Virus record (IMG/VR): IMGVR_UViG_2630968800_000004
Length of the DNA: 44,113 bases
DNA from: a virus
Taxonomy: Duplodnaviria > Heunggongvirae > Uroviricota > Caudoviricetes
Direction: 5' to 3' (one strand)
How positions within the stretch are numbered: position 1 is the stretch's first letter; the number at the start of each line of letters is the position of its first letter. Positions 13,638-31,652 of this stretch are shown piece after piece. Under the pieces are notes generated by a model that made no database searches, had not been told where the DNA came from, and worked only from the letters and a program-made list of their open reading frames with translations. The translations under genes were made by a program, and so were the position numbers.

Positions 13638-15242
13638 ATGATTCAGCTATCCAGTAGTCACAAACTTCCAGCAGTCTACTATCTCTACCAGCGTAACGGC
13701 GTCTACTACTTCCGTCTTAGGGTCAGACAATCAAACAATGATAGAATGACCTCAATATCATTACGGACCAAGGATAGACGCACCGCTATGGCTTACTCAA
13801 GGCACATAAAGGCAGCACTCAAGGCAATACACGCAGACAGACCCAACGCTACCTATGAGGAAATGAGGGAACACCTTAAGGACATCGCTGAGTGTGAACT
13901 GTCTATGGGCCGTTCAGATCTCTTTGAGCCTGACATGAGGGATATCTACCGGGACCAATACGGAGAACTTGGTGAGAGCCTTACCGATGCTCTGGCTAGT
14001 GAGCCGCTAAGCATTGACCAGCATCGTTACATCAATGAGGCCCTGAAGGTGCTAAAAGCCTGTATGAGGCGTATCGAAGCGGGAGACAGTCAGCTTCTGA
14101 TAGATTACGTCGATCTTTTTAATGATATTGATAGGCAAGATAACCAAGCAGACTCTGTGTCCCTATCTGTTAATGCTCCAGAAGTAAAACCAGAAGTTAC
14201 GCCTAGCATTACCATAGCGAGCCTCTTTGAGCAATACGAAGCGGAGAACTATCAGAACTGGAAGCCTGCAACCTTAAGGGAAAACAAGGCGTCACACGCT
14301 GCGTTAATCGAAATATTCGACCATCTGGGTCTCAATGCAGACGCTAACAGGGCTGACATGCTTAGGGTCCGTGATGTGCTCCAGCAGTTACCTAGGAACC
14401 GTAAGCAGCGCTTCAAGGATGTCCCACTTGCTGACCTGTTGAGCCGTGAAGATAAGACAGATTGTCTGGATGTCGTTACCATCAACAACAAGTATCTTAT
14501 TAAGATGGCTGCTGTCTTTAGGTGGGCTGTGCGCAATGACTTGATTAAAAAGAACATGACTGAGGGTCTGGAGCTTAAAGTCCCTCAGCGTAAAGCCTCA
14601 GGGGCCCGTAACGCCTTCTCTACGGAGCAGGTGGGGCAACTACTGGTCGCAGCTAAGGCATACTCTCAGAAGACCTCTGGTAAGCCGTATCATTATTATG
14701 TTACCGCCTTGGCTGCTATCACTGGGGCGAGACTCAATGAAATAGCCCAACTACAGGTCAAAGACGTCAGGACCACTGAGGCGGGAACCGTTTATATTCA
14801 TATCAATGAAGACGATAGTAGTCTACCCGGTAAGAGCATCAAGAACGCTCATAGTGACCGCTGTGTGCCTCTGGTCGATGGGGCCTATGGTTTTATATTG
14901 GCTGACTTTATGGCGCTTGTAGAGACCCGTAGAGGCGCTGACGGTGATGACGCTATGGTGTTCGATGGTCTGCGTCTCATGAAGAACGGTTACGGTGAGC
15001 AGGTGAGTAAATGGTTTAATCGGACGTTGTTGCCTAAAGTCCTCGTAGACCGTAGCGGCTTAGCGTTTCACTCGTTTAGACATACAGTTGCGGCCCAGTT
15101 AAAACAACATGGGGTCGAGTTGGCGTATGCACAGGCGATCATGGGGCATAGTTCAGGGTCTATTACGTACGACCGTTATGCTAAAGAGGTCGAGGTTGAT
15201 AGGCTGGTCAATGTGATGGCTGATGTTTATAAGGAGACCTAG
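13638..15242 (+). CDS. Tyrosine site-specific integrase (534 aa) immediately downstream of tRNA-Gly
   Basis: C-terminal catalytic signature LAFHSFRHTVAAQL...IMGHSSGSITYDRY; N-terminal YYFR-type motif; same orientation as the tRNA array. Confidence 0.85.
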   Translation: MIQLSSSHKLPAVYYLYQRNGVYYFRLRVRQSNNDRMTSISLRTKDRRTAMAYSRHIKAALKAIHADRPNATYEEMREHLKDIAECELSMGRSDLFEPDMRDIYRDQYGELGESLTDALASEPLSIDQHRYINEALKVLKACMRRIEAGDSQLLIDYVDLFNDIDRQDNQADSVSLSVNAPEVKPEVTPSITIASLFEQYEAENYQNWKPATLRENKASHAALIEIFDHLGLNADANRADMLRVRDVLQQLPRNRKQRFKDVPLADLLSREDKTDCLDVVTINNKYLIKMAAVFRWAVRNDLIKKNMTEGLELKVPQRKASGARNAFSTEQVGQLLVAAKAYSQKTSGKPYHYYVTALAAITGARLNEIAQLQVKDVRTTEAGTVYIHINEDDSSLPGKSIKNAHSDRCVPLVDGAYGFILADFMALVETRRGADGDDAMVFDGLRLMKNGYGEQVSKWFNRTLLPKVLVDRSGLAFHSFRHTVAAQLKQHGVELAYAQAIMGHSSGSITYDRYAKEVEVDRLVNVMADVYKET

Positions 15243-15330
15243 AGGAGACCATAGTCTAGGATGACACTTACTACAGACCTGTGTGGTCATGTTTTTGACT
15301 CATAGTTTTCTCTACTTGTCAAGGGATAAT

Positions 15331-15353
15331 TAATACGACTCACTATAGGGAGA
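15331..15353 (+). promoter_or_regulatory. Exact phage T7 RNA polymerase promoter consensus (TAATACGACTCACTATAGGGAGA), copy 1
   Basis: 23/23 match to the T7 class III promoter -17 to +6; predicted +1 G at 15348. Confidence 0.85.
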
Positions 15354-15450
15354 AGGACACAAAAAGTTTTCTCTTCTAGGATGACACTTACTACAGACCT
15401 GTGCGGTCATGTTTTTGACTCATAGTTTTCTCTGCTTGTCAAGGGGTAAT

Positions 15451-15473
15451 TAATACGACTCACTATAGGGAGA
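15451..15473 (+). promoter_or_regulatory. Exact phage T7 RNA polymerase promoter consensus, copy 2
   Basis: 23/23 match; predicted +1 at 15468. Confidence 0.85.
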
Positions 15474-15570
15474 AGGGACACAAAAAGTTTTCTCTTCTAG
15501 GATGACACTTACTACAGACCTGTGTGGTCATGTTTTTGACTCATGGTTTTCTCTACTTGTCAAGGATAAT

Positions 15571-15593
15571 TAATACGACTCACTATAGGGAGA
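15571..15593 (+). promoter_or_regulatory. Exact phage T7 RNA polymerase promoter consensus, copy 3
   Basis: 23/23 match; predicted +1 at 15588. Confidence 0.85.
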
Positions 15594-15779
15594 AGGGACA
15601 CAAAAAGTTTTCTCTTCTAGGACAACTAACCGTAACTTATCGCATCCTTTCAGGGGCGGGATGACCAATTACAGACACCAAGCGTTCTACTTAAAGTGAA
15701 TGCTTCCTGTGTGCTCTGGGTCAGTCGATAAGTGAATAGCAATAAGACACAATCATCTTAATTATGGTCTCTAGTCCCT

Positions 15780-18088: not shown

Positions 18089-19037
18089 AAAAAAAGCAAC
18101 AGCGTATTTTGCACAGGAGTCGCTGAAAAATACGCGTTAATCGAACAATGGCGACAACAATTTCCCATTGAAGCGATGTGTCAGGTATTTGGTGTATCCA
18201 GGAGCGGTTATTACAACTGGGTACAGCATGAACCCTCAGACAGAAAACAAAGTGATGAGCGGCTAAAACCGGAGATTAAGGTGGCACATATCCGCACTCG
18301 CGAAACATATGGAACCCGGCGGCTCCAGACGGAGCTGGCAGAGAATGGCATCATCGTTGGTCGTGACCGACTGGCACGTCTTCGTAAGGAGCTGAGGCTG
18401 CGCTGTAAGCAGAAACGCAAGTTCAGAGCGACTACGAACCCGAACCACAATCTGCCAGTTGCGCCAAATCTGCTGAACCAGACGTTCGCTCCTACAGCAC
18501 CAAATCAGGTCTGGGTGGCGGACCTGACGTATGTTGCCACACAGGAGGGATGGTTGTACCTCGCTGGCATCAAAGATGTTTATACGTGTGAAATTGTCGG
18601 CTACGCCATGGGAGAGCGCATGACAAAAGAGCTGACAGGTAAAGCCCTGTTTATGGCGCTCAGGAGCCAGCGCCCACCTGCCGGGCTAATCCACCACTCT
18701 GATCGAGGTTCACAGTACTGCGCATACGATTACCGGGTCATACAGGAGCAGTCTGGTCTGAAAACATCAATGTCGCGTAAAGGTAACTGTTACGACAACG
18801 CTCCGATGGAAAGCTTCTGGGGAACGCTGAAAAATGAGAGCCTGAGCCACTATCGTTTTAATAACCGGGATGAAGCCATCTCAGTAATACGGGAATACAT
18901 TGAGATTTTCTACAATCGTCAGCGTCGTCACTCTCGTCTGGGGAATATCTCCCCGGCAGCCTTCAGGGAAAAATATCATCAGATGACTGCTTAAAAAAAG
19001 AACAAATGGTAGTGTCCGCTATTGCCAGTACACCTCA
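18089..19037 (+). mobile_element. IS600, 5'-truncated (3' 949 bp only; first ~315 bp missing at the IS1 junction)
   Basis: Sequence begins inside the orfA 3' end (A-run) and runs to the normal right terminus ...CCAGTACACCTCA. Confidence 0.85.
18176..18994 (+). CDS. IS600 OrfB
   Basis: 272-aa ORF. Confidence 0.8.
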   Translation: MCQVFGVSRSGYYNWVQHEPSDRKQSDERLKPEIKVAHIRTRETYGTRRLQTELAENGIIVGRDRLARLRKELRLRCKQKRKFRATTNPNHNLPVAPNLLNQTFAPTAPNQVWVADLTYVATQEGWLYLAGIKDVYTCEIVGYAMGERMTKELTGKALFMALRSQRPPAGLIHHSDRGSQYCAYDYRVIQEQSGLKTSMSRKGNCYDNAPMESFWGTLKNESLSHYRFNNRDEAISVIREYIEIFYNRQRRHSRLGNISPAAFREKYHQMTA

Positions 19038-19411
19038 GTAATCCATCCAGGCCTGTTGTTGCAGAGCTTGGCGATGATTCAGGCTGGCATTTTTTCAGCC
19101 AGAGAAACCCGGATAACAGCATAGTGTTCACTGTTAACGGACAGGTAATTCCGTTAAATTACGGAAACTTCGATGCCCGCTATAAATATCGAACAGAGGG
19201 GGTACAGGATGTACGGTATGGCCATGAAATGTATTACAGCCCCGGCAGTAACACCGTTTCGTGGAGATTTTGCGCACCTTCGGGACACGGGCTGTCAGGG
19301 ATGGCGATATCGGATACCGGCCGTAACTCAGCGGATAACGTTGACGGTGTGTATTACCGACCACTGCAAAAACTGATTAATGGCACCTGGTATAACGTAG
19401 CGAGTATTTAA
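19038..19411 (+). pseudogene. Side tail-fibre C-terminal fragment (5' part removed at the IS600 junction)
   Basis: ...VAELGDDSGWHFFSQRNPDNSIVFTVNGQ...[21 protein letters not shown], typical tail-fibre C-terminus. Confidence 0.55.
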
Positions 19412-19413
19412 CA

Positions 19414-19958
19414 ATGTTGCATTTAAAAAATATTACTACGGGTAATCCGAAAACAGCAGAACAATATCAGATGACAAAACGATATTCGGTCACCTGGCTT
19501 TTTTCAGAAGACGGAAAAAACTGGTATGAAGAGCTGAAGAATTTCGCCAGGACACAATTAAAATAACTTACACCGGAGACGGTCGCGTGGTGTGGGTCGG
19601 TAAGGATGTGACAGGCATCGAGCCACGCAATGCCAGCGTTATCGAAGTTCCGGATATTACCGCTAACCGCCGCATTACCGCGCCGGGTTACTGGTTTTAC
19701 CGCAATGATGAATTTGTCTTTGACTACAGACTCAAAGCGGAAGATGAGCGTGATGCCCTTCTGGCTCAGGTCAGTGCCCGGACAGGGGAATGGGAAGAAG
19801 ACCTGCTGCTGGGGTTAATCAGCGACGAAGATAAAGAAAAGCTGAAAGCCTGTCGTATTTACGCGAAATCGCTGCAGGCGATGGATTTCAGCACCATCAC
19901 TGATAAATCCTCATACAACGCCATTGAATGGCCCGCCTCTCCGGAAGGTTCTTCCTGA
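19414..19958 (+). pseudogene. Tail-fibre assembly protein (Tfa-like), interrupted by stop/frameshift
   Basis: [40 protein letters not shown]... ends at TAA 19564; the remainder (19587-19958) is in another frame. Confidence 0.55.
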
Positions 19959-19981
19959 TTTAATTTATCGCGAGAAAAACA

Positions 19982-21271
19982 ATGTCTGTAGTGATATCAG
20001 GTGCGCTGACTGATGGCGCAGGTATCCCCATGTCCGGATACCATATTATTCTGAAATCCCGGGTAAACCCCCCGGAAGTGGTGATGAACACTGTTGCTGA
20101 TGTGATGACAGGAAACGATGGTGAATACTGTTTCCATGCGCGGACTGGAAAATATGGTGTGTATCTGAAACAGGACTGGCGCAACGAGTACAACGTTGGC
20201 GACATTGCTGTATATGAGGACTCAAAGCCCGGCACGCTGAATGACTTTCTGATTGCTCCTGATGAGGGCGACCTGAAACCGGATGTCGTCAAACGCTTTG
20301 AGGAAATGGTGGCGCAGGCGCAGCAGAGCGCCGGGGCCGCAGCCGGAAACGCACAGCAGACGGCGCAGGATGTGGCGGCAGCCGCAGGTTATGCCCGCGC
20401 AGCAGAGCAGGCCAAAAATGACATTGATGCTGCGCTGACCGGCACTCTGAAAACGGCTAACCATCTGTCTGAAATCGCAGCAGCAGGCGAAAAGGCACAA
20501 CAGAAGTCCCGGGATAATCTGGGGCTGAAAAGTGCGGCCACGATGGAAGCACAGAGCGACATTTACGACCGGACAAAAGGCCGTCTGGCGATACCCGGCG
20601 CATTCGGCTTTGGGTGTGCTTTTCTGCCTGAAGATGTTATCCGTTTTGACACTAAGAGTGATTTCCTGGCCTGGGTAAGGAATGCGCTGCCAGGTGAATA
20701 TTCCGTTGCTGGCCCCTACGGCATCATCATACCCGACACACGGTTTGAAGGGGTGCTCAGCATCCGGTGGACTGATGCACGCCCTGAGACAACAGAACCG
20801 CGGTACAGAGCCAAATCCCTTACTTTTTACGGCATTAACGGCCCCATTTATCACACCCGCTACTGCTACTGGCCCATATCCAGACTGACTGGCTGGGTGA
20901 AAATAAATATAACCACAGAAGATATTATTTACAGAATCGTGGCGAGCTCTGTCCGCAACAGATGGGGAGACCCTGACATTGGCGGGCTGATTATTGCTGC
21001 GTACCAGGGAGAAGCTGACGGTGATAAAGTCATCAGACTTGTCAGGGGGCAGTCATACAGAGGCTCACGACTGGGACCGGTGGGGATTTCAGTGCCCAGT
21101 ACTCCCACCGGAACGTATATAGTATCCCCACAATTTTTCATTACGGGATGTTCAGAGCATTCATTACCGGGGTCATATTGCGCCCTGTCCGGGGTGCCGG
21201 ATGCACATGTCTCTGGCGCAATGCCCGGGCTTTTTATTCGCACATCGAGAGGAATGCACCGTGGAAATTAA
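19982..21271 (+). CDS. Phage tail-fibre protein (429 aa)
   Basis: Ala/Gln-rich central segment, conserved C-terminal region duplicated at 37759-37947, followed by an assembly-like gene. Confidence 0.55.
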   Translation: MSVVISGALTDGAGIPMSGYHIILKSRVNPPEVVMNTVADVMTGNDGEYCFHARTGKYGVYLKQDWRNEYNVGDIAVYEDSKPGTLNDFLIAPDEGDLKPDVVKRFEEMVAQAQQSAGAAAGNAQQTAQDVAAAAGYARAAEQAKNDIDAALTGTLKTANHLSEIAAAGEKAQQKSRDNLGLKSAATMEAQSDIYDRTKGRLAIPGAFGFGCAFLPEDVIRFDTKSDFLAWVRNALPGEYSVAGPYGIIIPDTRFEGVLSIRWTDARPETTEPRYRAKSLTFYGINGPIYHTRYCYWPISRLTGWVKINITTEDIIYRIVASSVRNRWGDPDIGGLIIAAYQGEADGDKVIRLVRGQSYRGSRLGPVGISVPSTPTGTYIVSPQFFITGCSEHSLPGSYCALSGVPDAHVSGAMPGLFIRTSRGMHRGN

Positions 21272-21825
21272 AAAAATCATTAATCCCCGTTATACCGAAA
21301 GTGGCGCAGTAGACTGTGACGTTTTTTTTTGACGACAGGGACCAGGCAGTCCCCTACACAGCCACCGCTGATGATGTCGCACCGACGGGTCAGCAAATCT
21401 GGCAGGAACTGCAAAGTGGCAAATGGGGTGAGATAGCCCCATTCACTGTGACACCAGAAATGCTGGAAGCGGCCAGAGAGGCCAGACGTCAGGAAATTGA
21501 AGCATGGCGCGCAGAACAGGAGGCGAAGCTGTTCACGTTTGAATGGAACGGTCGTATCTGGAATGCTGGTCCCGACTCACTGGGCCGCCTGTCCCCGGTA
21601 GTCATGCTGGCAAAATCTGTCACAGCACAAACACATATGGCGTGGAGCGATGCCGATAATCAGCAGGTGAAACTGTCGATGCCGGAACTGGAAGAACTGG
21701 CGGCAGCAATGGTGCAGGCGCAGGTCGATCGCAACGATGAGATTTATCGCCGTCAGCGGGAGCTGAAGGAAGAGCTGAATAGTCTGAAGGATTTGAATTC
21801 GGTTAGGAATTTTATCGTGGAATAA
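21261..21825 (+). pseudogene. Tail-fibre assembly/chaperone-like gene, copy 1, frameshifted in a T9 homopolymer
   Basis: GTG 21261 frame hits TGA right after T9 (21322-21330); paralog at 37937-38500 has T8 and an uninterrupted frame. Confidence 0.45.
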
Positions 21826-21833
21826 CAGAAGCT

Positions 21834-21903
21834 GCGGCACGTCGTATGCAGGAACGTGCCGCGGTTGGCTGGTAAACTTTCGATAGTGCGAGTATTGAAT
21901 GAT
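21834..21903. repeat. ~70-bp conserved element with hairpin, copy 1 (second copy at 40677-40745)
   Basis: GCGGCACGTCGTATGCAGGAACGTGCCGC... shared between the two tail-fibre module ends. Confidence 0.4.
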
Positions 21904-22025
21904 TTCTAGGCGTTATCGATTTTACGTATTTTTTGCATGATAGAATTCGTACCTCCTCCCAACGACCTTCCATGGCTTTCCGGACTTCTGTAGGCTGGCG
22001 GACGATGCTGTCCTCGGATGTTGTG

Positions 22026-22883
22026 CTAATTGGGTGATAACAGATCCTGTGTATGGGCGTTTCCCTTTGTGCGTGCGTTGATGCTGGTAACGGTAAACGT
22101 CATGATGAACACGACCGCGAATAAGACGACAATCGTCGGAGCTGGTGCGCTGTCGATAAAAAAGGACAGCCAGACACCAGTCATTGACACTATTACCGAT
22201 ATGCCAGTCGCCAGTAGGAGCGCAATATGAAAGCGTTGTGTCAGGAGTACTGCAATGGCGCCAGGCGCAATGAGCAGAGAAATAGAGAGAATGATACCTA
22301 CTGCTTTCAGCGTCGCCACAATGGTCAGGGAAACCATGCACAGCAGCCCATAATGCAGCCATCTCGTATGCAAACCGCTTACCTGCGCCTGTTGATAATC
22401 AAAGCTGAACAGCAAAAAATCCCGCCATTTTACGCTAATAACAAGTGTAACCAGCCCGGCAATAATCACCGTCTGGATTATGTCGCCGATGGTTATCCCG
22501 AGCATGTCGCCGAAAAGAATATGGTCAAGATGTACGTCTGGTTTAATTGCAATATACAAGATCAGACCTGCGGCAAACATGCCAGAAAAAACAATCCCCA
22601 TAACTGTATCTTGCTTGATTCGGCTGTTGTCTTTCAGGTATCCCGTCGCCACCGCGCAGAATACTCCGGCGACGAATGCCCCTGTAGCCAGAGGTAACCC
22701 CAGAATCCAGGTAAGCACGATGCCAGGAAAAACCGCATGACTCATCGCGTCACCCATCAGTGCCCAACCTTTCAGGACCAGAAAGACCGACAGCAGCGCA
22801 CAGGGTATGGAAACTACCAGTGAAATCAGCAGTGCGTGACTCATAAAGGTGAACTGCAGTGGCTCCAGTAATAATGCCATCAT
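22026..22883 (-). CDS. sitD: SitD, iron/manganese ABC transporter permease
   Basis: 285-aa polytopic membrane ORF, last gene of a four-gene ABC operon. Confidence 0.8.
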   Translation of the reverse strand: MMALLLEPLQFTFMSHALLISLVVSIPCALLSVFLVLKGWALMGDAMSHAVFPGIVLTWILGLPLATGAFVAGVFCAVATGYLKDNSRIKQDTVMGIVFSGMFAAGLILYIAIKPDVHLDHILFGDMLGITIGDIIQTVIIAGLVTLVISVKWRDFLLFSFDYQQAQVSGLHTRWLHYGLLCMVSLTIVATLKAVGIILSISLLIAPGAIAVLLTQRFHIALLLATGISVIVSMTGVWLSFFIDSAPAPTIVVLFAVVFIMTFTVTSINARTKGNAHTQDLLSPN

Positions 22884-25475: not shown

Positions 25476-25507
25476 AATTTAGTACCTATAGTGAGCAAAA
25501 TTAGAAC

Positions 25508-25529
25508 AAACATAGCAACGGCTATGTTT
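25508..25529 (-). promoter_or_regulatory. MntR operator-like palindrome (AAACATAGCaacgGCTATGTTT) in the sitA promoter region
   Basis: Perfect inverted repeat 33-54 bp upstream of the sitA start. Confidence 0.55.
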
Positions 25530-25542
25530 TATAGCATAACCT

Positions 25543-25560
25543 ATACAAAATGAAAATAAT
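25543..25560 (-). promoter_or_regulatory. Fur-box-like sequence (AAAATAATTATCATTAAC)
   Basis: Matches the GATAATGATAATCATTATC-type consensus at most positions. Confidence 0.5.
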
Positions 25561-25906
25561 TATCATTAACAGCTTTGAGGCCTAAAACAGGGATTAGGTT
25601 GTTTCCTGCTGGCGACATGATATTGAGGAAAAAAGTAGAGCAGCTATTAGGCTTTGAAATGACTTTATGAGGAAAATTGTTGATGGCAAAAATGGGGCAA
25701 AAAAGAGTGGGTTATCGTAGCTTATTGTTGTCGCTGATAATGTTTAACATATTGAAAAATAAATAAAATACTTATGAGTCAGATAGTTGTGATTTTTGCC
25801 CTTACTTGTTCAGGTTGTATTGTTCTTTCTTTGTAATTTGTTGATTTTCTTGCATTATTTCAGTTCTCTGGTACTAAATGGGGCAAATTGGGGGCAAACT
25901 TTGCAA

Positions 25907-26546
25907 CTACGATAACCGCGCATTCAACATGGCTATCTGTTCGTCGTTCATGTCATCAATCCACATACCGTAAATTTCATACACCATTTGCGCAGTTTCA
26001 TGCCCCATCTGGCTGGCTATAAATGCCGGGTTCGCTCCTGCCGTCAACAGCCAGCAGGCAAAAGTATGTCGCGTATGGTACGGATTACGGCGGCGAATAC
26101 CAGCACGTTTTACTGCTGCATTCCATCTTGTACCCAAACTGCTTACCGAGTAATAAGGTTTCTGTTTTTCGTTACACACCCTGGGCATGAAAACAAAATG
26201 CAGTTTTTGTTTTTCAGTTCTGCCGTACTCCCGATGATAAAAAGTGATTTCGCTTTTGCGATGATGCCCGGTCAGTTTGTATTGCTCCTTCAGTGCTTCA
26301 AGAGCCGGCTGCAGTAATGTTACCGTCCGGATCCCGGCATTTGTTTTTGGGGGACCGAACATATCAAGTATCGTCAGGTTTCTTCTGACATTCACAATTC
26401 CCTTCTCGAAATCCACATCCTCCCACGCCAGAGCTGCCAGTTCCCCGTGACGAAGCCCGGAGTAAACGGCAAATTTCCACAAGTTTTGGCTCTGTCCTTT
26501 TTCACTTTCCATTAATGCATTGAATTCTGTTTTAGATAACGGGTCA
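25907..26546 (-). pseudogene. Tyrosine integrase, C-terminal catalytic portion (N-terminal part removed at IS1)
   Basis: ...NPYHTRHTFACWLLTAGANPAFIASQMGHETAQMVYEIY catalytic motifs. Confidence 0.7.
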
Positions 26547-26601
26547 GGTAATGCTGCCAACTTACTGATTTAGTGTATGATGGTGATTTTAAGGTGCTTG
26601 C

Positions 26602-26877
26602 GTGGCTTCCATTTCCATCAGATGTCCTTCCTGCTCCGCTACTGAAGGCGTGGTGCGTAACGGCAAAAGCACTGCCGGACATCAGCGCTATCTCTGCTCT
26701 CATTGCCGTAAAACATGGCAACTACAGTTCACTTACACCGCCTCTCAGCCCGGTACGCACCAGAAAATCATTGATATGGCCATGAATGGCGTCGGATGTC
26801 GCGCCAGTGCACGCATTATGGGCGTTGGCCTCAACACGGTTTTACGTCACTTAAAAAACTCAGGCCGCAGTCGGTAA
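26602..26877 (+). CDS. insA: IS1 InsA
   Basis: 91-aa ORF. Confidence 0.85.
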
Positions 26878-27299
26878 CCTCGCGCATACAACCGGGCAGT
26901 GATGTGATTGTCTGCGCTGAAATGGACGAACATTGGGGCTACGTCGGTGCTAAATCACGTCAGCGCTGGCTGTTTTACGCGTATGACAGGATACGGAGGA
27001 CGGTTGTGGCGCACGTCTTCGGTGAACGCACTCTGGCCACACTGGAGCGTCTTCTGAGCCTGCTGTCGGCCTTTGAGGTCGTGGTATGGATGACGGATGG
27101 CTGTCCGCTGTATGAATCACGCCTGAAGGGAAAGCTGCACGTTATCAGCAAGCGTTACACTCAGCGCATTGAGCGACATAATCTGAATCTGAGACAACAT
27201 CTGGCAAGGCTGGTACGGAAGTCACTGTCGTTCTCAAAATCGGTGGAGCTGCATGACAAGGTCATCGGGCATTATCTGAACATAAAACACTATCAGTAA
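26796..27299 (+). CDS. insB: IS1 InsB frame
   Basis: 167-aa ORF. Confidence 0.8.
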
Positions 27300-27314
27300 G
27301 TTGGAGTCATTACC

Positions 27315-27486
27315 CACCGGAACTGATTTGATGAACTATCAACGCTCTTAAATTCCCGGCCTTTTTAATGTTACTGTTAGTAATCTCCCAGCCTTTCAAT
27401 GTTTCCCGACATCGTTTTCCTCGAAACATGAACCAGATGCGAATGTATTTACCTCGAATCTCGACACCTGTTGGTAATTTAGACAT
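27315..27486 (-). pseudogene. Integrase N-terminal fragment (arm-binding region)
   Basis: Minus-strand translation MSKLPTGVEIRGKYIRIWFMFRGKRCRETLKGW... ends at the IS1 boundary. Confidence 0.5.
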
Positions 27487-27702
27487 ATCATGAGTCTTTG
27501 ATAAACTGATTTATCTTCGGATAGTTGTACCAGATAATCCCTCGCTTACTGTCTGGCTTCCCTAAAGGAGATACTCGTTTGAAGTGGAAGCCTTCCACCC
27601 AACAGTTCTGGCGGTATGCTTCAATTTGTCTGGCACCCAGACCAGTGCGAAGCATCAGGCTGAACCGCCCCGGGTTTCCTGGAGAGTGTTTTATCTGTGA
27701 AC

Positions 27703-28585
<883 letters not shown>

Positions 28586-28589
<4 letters not shown>

Positions 28590-28912
28590 TTTTTCCAGAG
28601 GCGGTCGAACTCCGCCTTCGCAAAATAAGCGGAAGCCTGGCGAAGGATATCGTTACTGCGGCGCAGTTCACGATTTTCACGCTCCAGCTCTTTCAGACGC
28701 TGACGTTCAGCGGTGGTGAGCCCTCCATCACCGCCCCCGGTATCCCGCTCATGCTGGCGAACCCAGACACGCAGAGTCTCCGGCGTACAGCCAATCTTTG
28801 GGGCAATGGAACAAATTGTCGCCCATTGTGAGTCATATTCGCCCTGACTTTCCAGAACCATACGGACTGCCCGTTGACGGACTTCGGGGGAAAAACGAGT
28901 ATTTTTAGTCAT
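28586..28912 (-). CDS. IS629 OrfA
   Basis: [41 protein letters not shown]... Confidence 0.85.
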
Positions 28913-28986
28913 CCTGTTTACCTCTTTCTCAGGAAGTTTAGTCTCCAGGATTCCCGGGGCGGTTCATTCCCAAAATGCACTTGGTT

Positions 28987-30084
28987 TTACACCGGAATAT
29001 TCTCATCGTATCCTGCTTGTTGCGTTTCGTTTTGTGTTTGTGGATCCGGGAATGCATATTCAACGCCTTCCAGTTCAATCCATAGTGCATTACGACCAGC
29101 TTTGATTGTCGGCCAGTCCATACCTTTGATTCTTTCCCATGAGCGGGAGGTGAATGTTTTTTCCAGCAAATCAGCTTTTGCGCGTTTGGCGTCGTTACTG
29201 GTGCCCCCATGGTGCTTGTTGAGCAACTCGATAATTTCATCAAGTGCGATTTCTTTTGCACGCTTTTCTTTTAGCCATGTCGGTGTACCGTCGTTGGCAA
29301 ATAATTCACTGTTATCCCGTGAGGTATCGATGCCGGGGTGTTCACCTCCCAGGTTAAGAGACTCGATATGAGGAAGAAAGTTTTTAAATGTTGGGTTTGA
29401 AAATACCTGTCCATCAATACGGGTGGAGCGATCTTTTAGTATTCTGGCGGTGCGCCACACCTGACCGGTTTCTATGTTCATTTGCTTCTCCATCTGGATC
29501 CGGATGGAGGGTTCATAACCGGTTTCTGTTTCTGCTTTCATTTTTATACCGGTTTTTGCCAACTGGCGTTTGCCATCATCACCTTCGAAAAAGTCATACT
29601 CATATCCTGCACGCCCGCACATAATAATGTGCGCCTGACTGTTAACAAATCGATCGGTAAAGCGTCGCCACTCCTGTTTGAGCCACGCCCAGTCTGAAAA
29701 TTCCAGTCCTCGTTTACGGTTTCGGCGTCTGGCATACTCGTCGCATAATCCGGTCCAGAAGTGACTGATGGAGTCGATGATCATTACGGAACCGCTGCTT
29801 TCCGCTTCATTAATGGCTTCAAGCAGATCAACAAACGAGCGGGTTTTTGCCGTAAATAATTCGATATTTTCCGCATCAAAGCGGGGTTTAACCCAGTCAG
29901 AGCCTGTTTCTGTGTCCAGAAACATTACCGGGCGGTTACCAGCTTCAATTCCCCGTTGCCGCATAAGCATTACCAGACCAATAGCCAGTTCGCTTGCTGT
30001 GTAGGTTTTGCCGTCGCCAGCAAACCCCATAATTCCTGCTTTTAGATAGGCCTGTGTGTTTATTGCTCGTTGAAAAAGCGCCAT
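28987..30084 (-). CDS. P-loop NTPase (RecA-fold/AAA-like), phage-associated, function unknown
   Basis: Walker A GFAGDGKTYTA, Walker-B-like VMIIDSISHFW; 365 aa. Confidence 0.55.
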   Translation of the reverse strand: MALFQRAINTQAYLKAGIMGFAGDGKTYTASELAIGLVMLMRQRGIEAGNRPVMFLDTETGSDWVKPRFDAENIELFTAKTRSFVDLLEAINEAESSGSVMIIDSISHFWTGLCDEYARRRNRKRGLEFSDWAWLKQEWRRFTDRFVNSQAHIIMCGRAGYEYDFFEGDDGKRQLAKTGIKMKAETETGYEPSIRIQMEKQMNIETGQVWRTARILKDRSTRIDGQVFSNPTFKNFLPHIESLNLGGEHPGIDTSRDNSELFANDGTPTWLKEKRAKEIALDEIIELLNKHHGGTSNDAKRAKADLLEKTFTSRSWERIKGMDWPTIKAGRNALWIELEGVEYAFPDPQTQNETQQAGYDENIPV

Positions 30085-30089
30085 AGATT

Positions 30090-30384
30090 TTAGTCCTCCA
30101 AATCAATATCAACCTGGTGGTGGGCAATGGTTTCAGCCATGTACCGGATGTGTTCTGCCATGCGCTCCTGAAACTCAACATCATCATCAAATGCGTGGCT
30201 GATTGCCTGTTTATTGGCACCGTGGCGTTGCAAATGGTCGATGCAGAGCGATTCAAACAGGTGCTGAGGCAGACCTTTTTCCAGGTCGTCCGCCAGTTCC
30301 GTTTCTTTTTCTTCACGAACGATCTGCTGGTAGTGACGAGCCCATGCCATTTCTTCAATACGATCAAAAATCGGATAAGCGCTC
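30090..30384 (-). pseudogene. Hypothetical gene, 5' end removed at IS600 junction
   Basis: ORF reads through into the IS600 terminus (first residues encoded by IS sequence). Confidence 0.4.
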
Positions 30385-30448
30385 TGAGGTAGCCTGAGTT
30401 TAACGGACACTCCTTCCTGAAATAGAATGGCATCAGAAGGAGCTAATA

Positions 30449-30751
30449 ATGAGCAGAAAAACCCAACGTTACTCTAAATAGTTCAAAGCCGAAGCTGTCA
30501 GAACGGTTCTTGAAAATCAACTTTCGATCAGTGAAGGCGCTTCCCGATTATCTCTTCCTGAAGGCACTTTAGGACAATGGGTTACCGCCGCCAGAAAAGG
30601 GCTCGGTACTCCTGGTTCCCGCACGGTGGCTGAACTGGAATCTGAAATTCTGCAACTGCGTAAGGCGTTAAATGAAGCTCGCCTTGAGCGCGATATATTA
30701 AAAAAAGCAACAGCGTATTTTGCACAGGAGTCGCTGAAAAATACGCGTTAA
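30449..30751 (+). pseudogene. IS600 orfA with nonsense mutation (codon 10 GAG to TAG)
   Basis: ACTCTAAATAGTTC versus ACTCTAAAGAGTTC in the other copies. Confidence 0.8.
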
Positions 30752-30786
30752 TCGAACAATGGCGACAACAATTTCCCATTGAAGCG

Positions 30787-31605
30787 ATGTGTCAGGTATT
30801 TGGTGTATCCAGGAGCGGTTATTACAACTGGGTACAGCATGAACCCTCAGACAGAAAACAAAGTGATGAGCGGCTAAAACTGGAGATTAAGGTGGCACAT
30901 ATCCGCACTCGCGAAACATATGGAACCCGGCGGCTCCAGACGGAGCTGGCAGAGAATGGCATCATCGTTGGTCGTGACCGACTGGCACGTCTTCGTAAGG
31001 AGCTGAGGCTACGCTGTAAGCAGAAACGCAAGTTCAGAGCGACTACGAACCCGAACCACAATCTGCCAGTTGCGCCAAATCTGCTGAACCAGACGTTCGC
31101 TCCTACAGCACCAAATCAGGTCTGGGTGGCGGACCTGACGTATGTTGCCACACAGGAGGGATGGTTGTACCTCGCTGGCATCAAAGATGTTTATACGTGC
31201 GAAATTGTCGGCTACGCCATGGGAGAGCGCATGACAAAAGAGCTGACAGGTAAAGCCCTGTTTATGGCGCTCAGGAGCCAGCGCCCACCTGCCGGGCTAA
31301 TCCACTACTCTGATCGAGGTTCACAGTACTGCGCATACGATTACCGGGTCATACAGGAGCAGTCTGGTCTGAAAACATCAATGTCGCGTAAAGGTAACTG
31401 TTACGACAACGCTCCGATGGAAAGCTTCTGGGGAACGCTGAAAAATGAGAGCCTGAGCCACTATCGTTTTAATAACCGGGATGAAGCCATCTCAGTAATA
31501 CGGGAATACATTGAGATTTTCTACAATCGTCAGCGTCGTCACTCTCGTCTGGGGAATATCTCCCCGGCAGCCTTCAGGGAAAAATATCATCAGATGGCTG
31601 CTTAA
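30787..31605 (+). CDS. IS600 OrfB
   Basis: 272-aa ORF. Confidence 0.8.
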   Translation: MCQVFGVSRSGYYNWVQHEPSDRKQSDERLKLEIKVAHIRTRETYGTRRLQTELAENGIIVGRDRLARLRKELRLRCKQKRKFRATTNPNHNLPVAPNLLNQTFAPTAPNQVWVADLTYVATQEGWLYLAGIKDVYTCEIVGYAMGERMTKELTGKALFMALRSQRPPAGLIHYSDRGSQYCAYDYRVIQEQSGLKTSMSRKGNCYDNAPMESFWGTLKNESLSHYRFNNRDEAISVIREYIEIFYNRQRRHSRLGNISPAAFREKYHQMAA

Positions 31606-31652
31606 AAAAAGAACAAATGGTAGTGTCCGCTATTGCCAGTACACCTCACAGG

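Follow-up and report, generated by a model that had tools for sequence, protein, structure and literature searches.

Two nearly identical genes for a tail-fibre assembly-like protein lie in the window, i.e., in the whole 44,113-nt stretch of DNA analysed here, and they differ in the length of a run of T close to the start of the coding sequence. Does this difference reflect a reversible on/off switch, or is one copy simply decaying? An earlier note on this DNA had named both possibilities. Direct reading of the sequence showed nine T after G21321 in copy 1, whereas the run in copy 2 counts eight. In copy 1, the frame that starts at GTG 21261, with an SD-like GAGG 8 nt upstream, comprises 23 codons before it ends at TGA 21330-21332. 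The equivalent GTG 37937 of copy 2 opens a frame of 187 aa that reads through to 38500. Sequence, translation and alignment thus all agree with the description in the earlier note, namely a frame terminated by T9 in copy 1 and an open frame with T8 in copy 2. The elements concerned are as follows.

21261-21332, plus strand: truncated 23-codon frame of the DUF4376 gene, copy 1, from GTG to TGA, by translation

21322-21330, plus strand: T9 homopolymer, by comparison a +1 insertion relative to the ancestral T8 at codons Val21-Phe22-Phe23

21316-21825, plus strand: 169-aa ORF 3' of the frameshift, with a GTG start, no evident SD and the full DUF4376 domain

37937-38500, plus strand: DUF4376 gene, copy 2, open 187-aa frame, by translation, Pfam match and an exact protein elsewhere

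37998-38005, plus strand: T8 tract of copy 2, in frame, read from the sequence

Pairwise alignment joins the two copies from exactly 21083/37759 to about 21780/38455 at roughly 98% identity. Within these approximately 700 aligned bases the extra T is the sole gap, accompanied by about 12 substitutions, and T9 of copy 1 is the only homopolymer of nine or more bases in the entire 44 kb. The additional base also opens a second ORF at GTG 21316, 14 nt before the TGA of the truncated frame. Its 169-aa product contains the entire DUF4376 domain, and exactly this product is annotated on two NCBI contigs.

The gene product can be assigned from its homologues. The 187-aa protein matches Pfam DUF4376 (PF14301) at residues 70-175 with 58.4 bits against a cut-off of 25 (E = 1.2e-15), and it aligns over its full length, from residue 1, with phrog_1141 of the PHROG tail category (E = 5e-88). 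In copy 1 of the window, in EIEC prophages, in phiP27 and in Rac-SA53 the gene directly follows a tail-fibre gene. The nearest phage homologues share 74-77% identity with it and come last in the Stx2e phage phiP27 and in Rac-SA53, and the DUF4376 gene is the terminal gene of those phiP27-like prophages that brought sitABCD or ipaH into Shigella and EIEC. DUF4376 proteins of the Alteromonas phages V22 and A5 have been shown by experiment to be tail-fibre chaperones (PMC7289586, PMC10579305). From homology and gene order, the window gene would presumably encode the chaperone of the tail fibre just upstream. V22 gp27, A5 gp9 and phiP27 L57 share with it the C-terminal DUF4376, a length of some 190 aa and the position directly after a tail-fibre gene. 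However, the activity was demonstrated for distant Alteromonas proteins, whereas the subfamily in the window is known by homology and its gene lies orphaned in a remnant. The designation tail-fibre assembly-like, chosen in the earlier note, is hence a fair one given the Pfam domain, the PHROG tail category and the position after the fibre gene.

Homologues also help to define the start codon. Those of phiP27, Rac-SA53 and pPE4 have an ATG precisely at the GTG codon of the window gene, and this, together with the PHROG profile that aligns from residue 1, supports initiation at GTG. Given the exact coincidence with the ATG of these homologues, some annotations, with their 207-aa gene model, probably make the gene too long.

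Sequence comparison shows that T8 is the ancestral in-frame state and T9 a derived +1 insertion. EIEC prophages that are close to intact carry T8. Each of the best ten E. coli/EIEC matches is one base shorter than the copy 1 query, and the four of them that were read directly have T8 and an intact annotated gene. T8 was likewise found at the sit-linked locus in the complete S. flexneri genomes L017-L019, L024 and L035. Removing one T from copy 1 yields a protein identical, residue for residue, to one that S. flexneri 2457T shares with numerous other isolates. Exact protein look-ups assign both copies of the window to Shigella flexneri, and in them the repaired copy 1 protein occurred on 71 contigs as P0001 and on 54 contigs as P0017. 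T9 is thus the sole lesion inside the DUF4376 ORF of copy 1. Since the repaired ORF equals an intact allele, the event is recent and in principle reversible, a point that counts against decay. The T tract itself is confined to the Shigella/EIEC subfamily, in which the codons for Val-Phe-Phe read GTT TTT TTT and so produce T8. It is missing from the functional phage homologues phiP27, Rac-SA53, pPE4 and SerU-LTIIb, which have GTG CTG/TTG TTT (Val-Leu-Phe) at these codons.

Three public collections, scanned with a gapped pattern, yielded 86 cassette copies, 70 with T8, 11 with T7, three with T9 and one each with T6 and T10. Single Shigella genomes carry six or seven such copies. Tract length is therefore polymorphic among isolates, as seen in the comparison across isolates that the earlier note had proposed. 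Among all fetched loci, ten sequences have T9. They represent no fewer than four sequence backgrounds: the sit-linked copy (window, L015, L016) with a closely related paralog (L006 and contig A of L034), the ipaH-linked copy (L005, L007), a full-length version of the copy-2 type (L042, L104) and an IS-disrupted copy (L067). As T9 recurs in at least four backgrounds, the T run is a genuine site of recurrent mutation and a real hot spot of slippage, in line with the slippage-prone nature attributed to it before. Such repeated origin is likewise what a contingency locus would show, and it weighs against decay.

Alternatively, the ninth T might be an artefact, i.e., a homopolymer miscall in the source assembly. 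Miscalls are indeed present in the public data for this family. All 12 T6/T7 calls came from one batch of older IMG drafts, and in five of the 12 the nearby A7 run was shortened as well; L026, which is likely a long-read assembly, combines T7 with other 1-nt gaps. T7 was therefore rejected as a third biological state, T6 and T7 being treated as probable homopolymer under-calls, and as a practical consequence some of the public T6/T7 calls in this family are probably sequencing errors. T9, however, is not confined to the source assembly. Two independent drafts, L015 and L016, have it at the same sit-linked locus, and it turns up in further paralogs and lineages, a complete genome (L042) and a gut metagenome (L005) among them. 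Moreover, the nearby A7 run is normal in all ten T9 sequences, and within 700 nt no other indel occurs except in the mis-joined scaffold L034. We thus regard a miscall as very improbable.

If the tract were a true phase-variation device, it would act as a contingency locus that switches a chaperone or fibre trait reversibly and at high frequency. Some features agree with this. The T8/T9 repeat lies at codons 21-23, early in the coding sequence, and its length alters the frame, just as in the contingency loci of Neisseria, Haemophilus and Campylobacter, where a homopolymer near the 5' end of the coding sequence shifts the frame by its length. Length variants recur in several backgrounds, and T9 is the only lesion in the ORF. 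Compared with these contingency loci, however, the window tract lacks a selectable output, is not conserved among homologues and has a length that is tied to haplotype. The last point became apparent at site 21123. At the sit-linked locus, the T9 alleles that cover this site carry 21123T (window, L015, L006), and all T8 alleles carry 21123C. This linkage looks more like the inheritance of one event or of one gene-conversion tract than like rapid flipping, with the proviso that it was seen in few sequences and that gene conversion between paralogs could blur it.

Assembly breaks at the tract at first sight also speak for switching. In L008-L014, short-read (Logan) contigs end exactly after T8, and these breaks show that two continuations exist in the respective read sets. 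Yet in a de Bruijn graph the same breaks are accounted for by paralogs of different tract length within one genome, as they are found in the window. The 43-aa product that is listed for L008-L014 was considered as a T9 allele and rejected, because it is labelled so only where a contig stops at an assembly-graph branch. For the same reason, the 104 blocks with a 43-aa product were rejected as a measure of T9 frequency; they are contig ends rather than T9 alleles. Scaffolds L032 and L034 seemed to combine T8 and T9 within one isolate. SNP comparison showed that contigs of two different paralogs had been joined there by a single N, and the apparent T8/T9 pair of L034 is thus a pair of paralogs. 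No mismatch-repair-proficient member of the Enterobacteriaceae is known to use A/T runs of 8-9 nt as a fast switch, and the host, which is mismatch-repair proficient, is not known for contingency-locus switches in general.

A switch furthermore needs something to act on, and hence the surroundings of copy 1 matter. They contain the following genes.

19039-19411, plus strand: what is left of the first tail-fibre gene at its 3' end, interrupted by an IS copy whose last base is 19038

19413-19958, plus strand: frameshifted Caudo_TAP tail-fibre assembly gene with a 1-nt deletion near 19550

19982-21271, plus strand: second tail-fibre gene with PF08400 N-terminal domain, TGA stop changed to AGA at 21248, which adds seven codons

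22026-25475, minus strand: sitDCBA iron/manganese transporter operon, cargo at the prophage end adjoining copy 1

The order at copy 1 is thus Caudo_TAP gene, PF08400 tail-fibre gene and DUF4376 gene. In the Caudo_TAP gene, CAGCGAC has become CAGGAC near 19550, outside any homopolymer, and of the 13 loci compared that extend over position 21248, the window alone has A there. IS copies are numerous throughout the window. The EIEC orthologue of the copy 1 locus is a phiP27-like prophage of about 45 kb at the Rac site, which ends with tail fibre, DUF4376 and sitABCD. Only its terminal part of about 2.9 kb has been kept at the copy 1 locus (19039-22105), and compared with the EIEC prophage a virion module of about 22 kb with head, tail and baseplate genes is absent. 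An exact census of the SitD protein found it in 10 places, a sample that yields configurations rather than frequencies. The promoter scan returned no sigma-70-like promoter in 18900-22100, against 3.1 expected; transcription of the remnant is possible, putatively from outward promoters of IS elements. An intrinsic terminator made up of a weak hairpin at 21305-21318 and the T run was considered and rejected, as the terminator scan gave 5 sites against 3.7 by chance, which is not significant.

Copy 2, with its T8 the copy that would be switched on, is placed no better. Its neighbourhood comprises three elements.

37656-37758, plus strand: IS3-family transposase orfA fragment (HTH_Tnp_1), abutting the truncated fibre gene

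37759-37947, plus strand: tail-fibre gene remnant of copy 2, last ~178 nt; the two copies are similar from exactly 21083/37759 onward

38680-40395, minus strand: ipaH3-type T3SS effector gene with LRR and NEL E3 ligase, cargo after copy 2

Here, the upstream part of the fibre gene has been replaced by the orfA fragment, leaving an open DUF4376 gene without a fibre to serve. The EIEC orthologue is a related prophage with tail fibre, DUF4376 and ipaH3 at its end, and the exact copy 2 protein (P0031) is present in S. flexneri 301 and others. As both copies lie in IS-riddled remnants without a virion module, neither state of the tract has a visible output. With the virion module missing and neighbouring genes damaged, nothing selectable would depend on flipping, and the tract is not even present in functional phage homologues, which disfavours a switch as well. 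We consider phase variation at this tract extremely improbable.

We hence hold it very likely that T9 is a frameshift passed on as a pseudogene lesion within a defunct prophage, i.e., neutral decay, with replication slippage as the presumed mechanism and neutrality itself presumed. According to this scenario, phiP27-like prophages with DUF4376 as their last gene would have carried sitABCD or ipaH into Shigella and EIEC. By chance, Val-Phe-Phe would have been written there as GTT TTT TTT, which created the T8 run. In one S. flexneri sublineage a T would then have been gained, leading to a stop after 23 codons. Selection would not have acted against T9, as the head, tail and baseplate genes had already been lost and the neighbouring fibre genes were damaged. 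Copy 2 would have kept T8 and its open frame merely by not having been hit yet, its partner fibre gene being already destroyed.

Independent lesions in the neighbouring cassette genes argue for decay, and so does the erosion of other family copies by other routes. When the tract was reset to T8, 15 of 93 copies retained frameshifts or premature stops, and the other 78 were otherwise full length. That most cassette copies are still open may point to weak purifying selection or to another use of the orphan genes. Between the two options of the earlier note, the remnant context, the neighbouring lesions and the linkage to 21123 thus favour decay, and the missing output and the lack of tract conservation tell against the switch. 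That note had also named, as a refutation, reads with a fixed T9 and no heterogeneity together with further inactivating lesions in the same copy. Of these two parts, the lesions exist in the same cassette (IS cut, Caudo_TAP deletion, lost stop); inside the same ORF there are none.

A frameshifted gene is not necessarily silent, though. The T9 allele could be a leaky pseudogene in which the additional base lowers chaperone output without abolishing it, an option that we see as a minor but real possibility. RNA polymerase slippage could produce some U8 mRNA and thus full-length protein, ribosomes could slip by +1 at UUU-UGA-C, or translation could restart at GTG 21316. Baranov, Hammer, Zhou, Gesteland and Atkins described in 2005 so-called pseudo pseudogenes, in which a frameshift turns eight A, a length that is not slippery, into nine that are, homologues have a single ORF, and RNA polymerase slippage brings some of the transcripts back into frame (PMC1088944). 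In the same work, nine is given as the usual threshold of transcriptional slippage, and S. flexneri mxiE is cited as an example of slippage at a U run (PMC1088944). The event in the window corresponds to this definition, since it takes an A/T run from 8 to the slippage-prone 9 and intact single-ORF orthologues exist elsewhere (P0001/P0017 in S. flexneri, EIEC annotations, phage homologues). As in mxiE, which belongs to the same organism, the T run is found in overlapping ORFs early in the coding region. The stop comes right after the run, with TTT TGA C at 21327-21333, and the +1 frame remains open to 21825. This motif resembles the shift site of prfB, CUU UGA C. GTG 21316, which opens the downstream frame shortly before the stop, could in addition re-initiate translation.

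Rescue would nevertheless face several obstacles. At the transcript level, a 1-nt deletion or a 2-nt insertion is needed to restore the frame. The sequence upstream, GACTGTGACGTTTTTT, is devoid of an SD-like stimulator and contains no AGGGGG-like element, and an SD is also absent before GTG 21316. For a shift of the prfB type one would look for a conserved shift site, and TTT TGA C is a minority allele instead. The DUF4376 gene is absent from the gene table in the supplement to Baranov et al. 2005 (PMC1088944). Whereas the two-ORF layout of mxiE is a functional arrangement (PMC1088944), T9 in the window is a minority derived allele next to single-ORF T8 as the norm. In contrast to the published pseudo-pseudogenes, rescue is hypothetical here, and with the phage defunct its product would lack any evident role; even if rescue were complete, the chaperone would serve a fibre left without a virion. 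The idea may be taken further, in that T9 cassettes would be pseudo-pseudogenes with a tuned output that perhaps serves other resident phages or tailocin-like particles with related fibres, but this we deem improbable.

Neutral decay, by comparison, makes T9 an ordinary event of a kind already familiar in Shigella genomes. Frameshift pseudogenes in Shigella prophage remnants resemble the window in all the main respects, as they arise by a 1-base indel in a homopolymer, lie in IS-flanked truncated prophages, have neighbours with independent lesions and are polymorphic among isolates. There is no essential difference, apart from the additional feature that several paralogous cassettes have independently suffered a hit in this one tract. 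The biological weight of the finding is hence small; it is another case of prophage-remnant erosion in Shigella in which homopolymer runs break first. Its consequences are rather practical. Differences between paralogs in T8 and T9 break short-read assemblies at this site and can cause mis-joined scaffolds. For annotators the locus provides a clean case in which a frameshifted and an intact allele are separated by one base, in a run long enough for transcriptional slippage.

The tail-fibre assembly gene Caudo_TAP (19413-19958), which lies upstream of the tail-fibre gene (19982-21271), carries a frameshift of its own: relative to the near-intact orthologous prophages of enteroinvasive E. coli (EIEC), a single nucleotide is deleted near window position 19550, changing CAGCGAC to CAGGAC. 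The resulting split into 50-aa and 123-aa frames is also present in S. flexneri genomes that carry the T8 run in the DUF4376 gene (L018), and the Caudo_TAP lesion is hence older than the insertion that produced T9 in copy 1. Next to copy 1, the native TGA stop codon of the tail-fibre gene now reads AGA at position 21248, so that the protein gains seven residues and ends at a TAA (21269-21271). This position is a T in all 13 compared loci that cover the site, and the change falls within the Shine-Dalgarno region of the DUF4376 gene.

The DUF4376 gene has a second homopolymer run.

21270-21276 (copy 1) and 37946-37952 (copy 2): A7 run, codons 4-5 of the DUF4376 gene

In several older drafts this run appears as A6 or A5, often alongside T7 or T6 (loci listed for the A7 run: L056, L072, L079, L083, L103, L108, L112 and L113). 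This pattern points to systematic under-calling of homopolymers in that batch of public genomes.

Single Shigella-type genomes harbor six to seven copies of the DUF4376 gene cassette, as seen in S. flexneri SFBU1023 (L050-L039) and in strain ECMA0423 (L040-L051). In the latter, a 4.44-Mb genome labeled E. coli, T9 occurs in one of the seven copies (L042). In two public scaffolds (L032, GCA_900485795.1; L034, GCA_900486925.1), a single N links two overlapping contigs of different paralogous cassettes; their tandem DUF4376 duplication is false and was made by the contig join.

A 71-nt element with the hairpin GCGGCACGT...ACGTGCCGC occurs twice in the window (21823-21893 and 40666-40736; 79% identity). 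It immediately follows the DUF4376 stop codon in copy 1; in copy 2 the ipaH3 gene sits between the two, as if ipaH3 were cargo inserted between the last phage gene and the 71-nt end element.

Compared with locus L027, window 25476-33600 places prophage integrase, xis and recE-side sequences (26207-33581) immediately past sitA, where the EIEC counterpart continues with uspF and ompN. This difference in gene order indicates a likely IS-mediated rearrangement past sitA, which would also have placed the sit-linked and ipaH3-linked cassettes at most 17 kb apart. Elsewhere, a unit of about 120 nt is repeated three times in tandem at 15255-15597, just 3' of a 534-aa integrase-family ORF (13638-15242), with the later copies 97% and 75% identical to the first.
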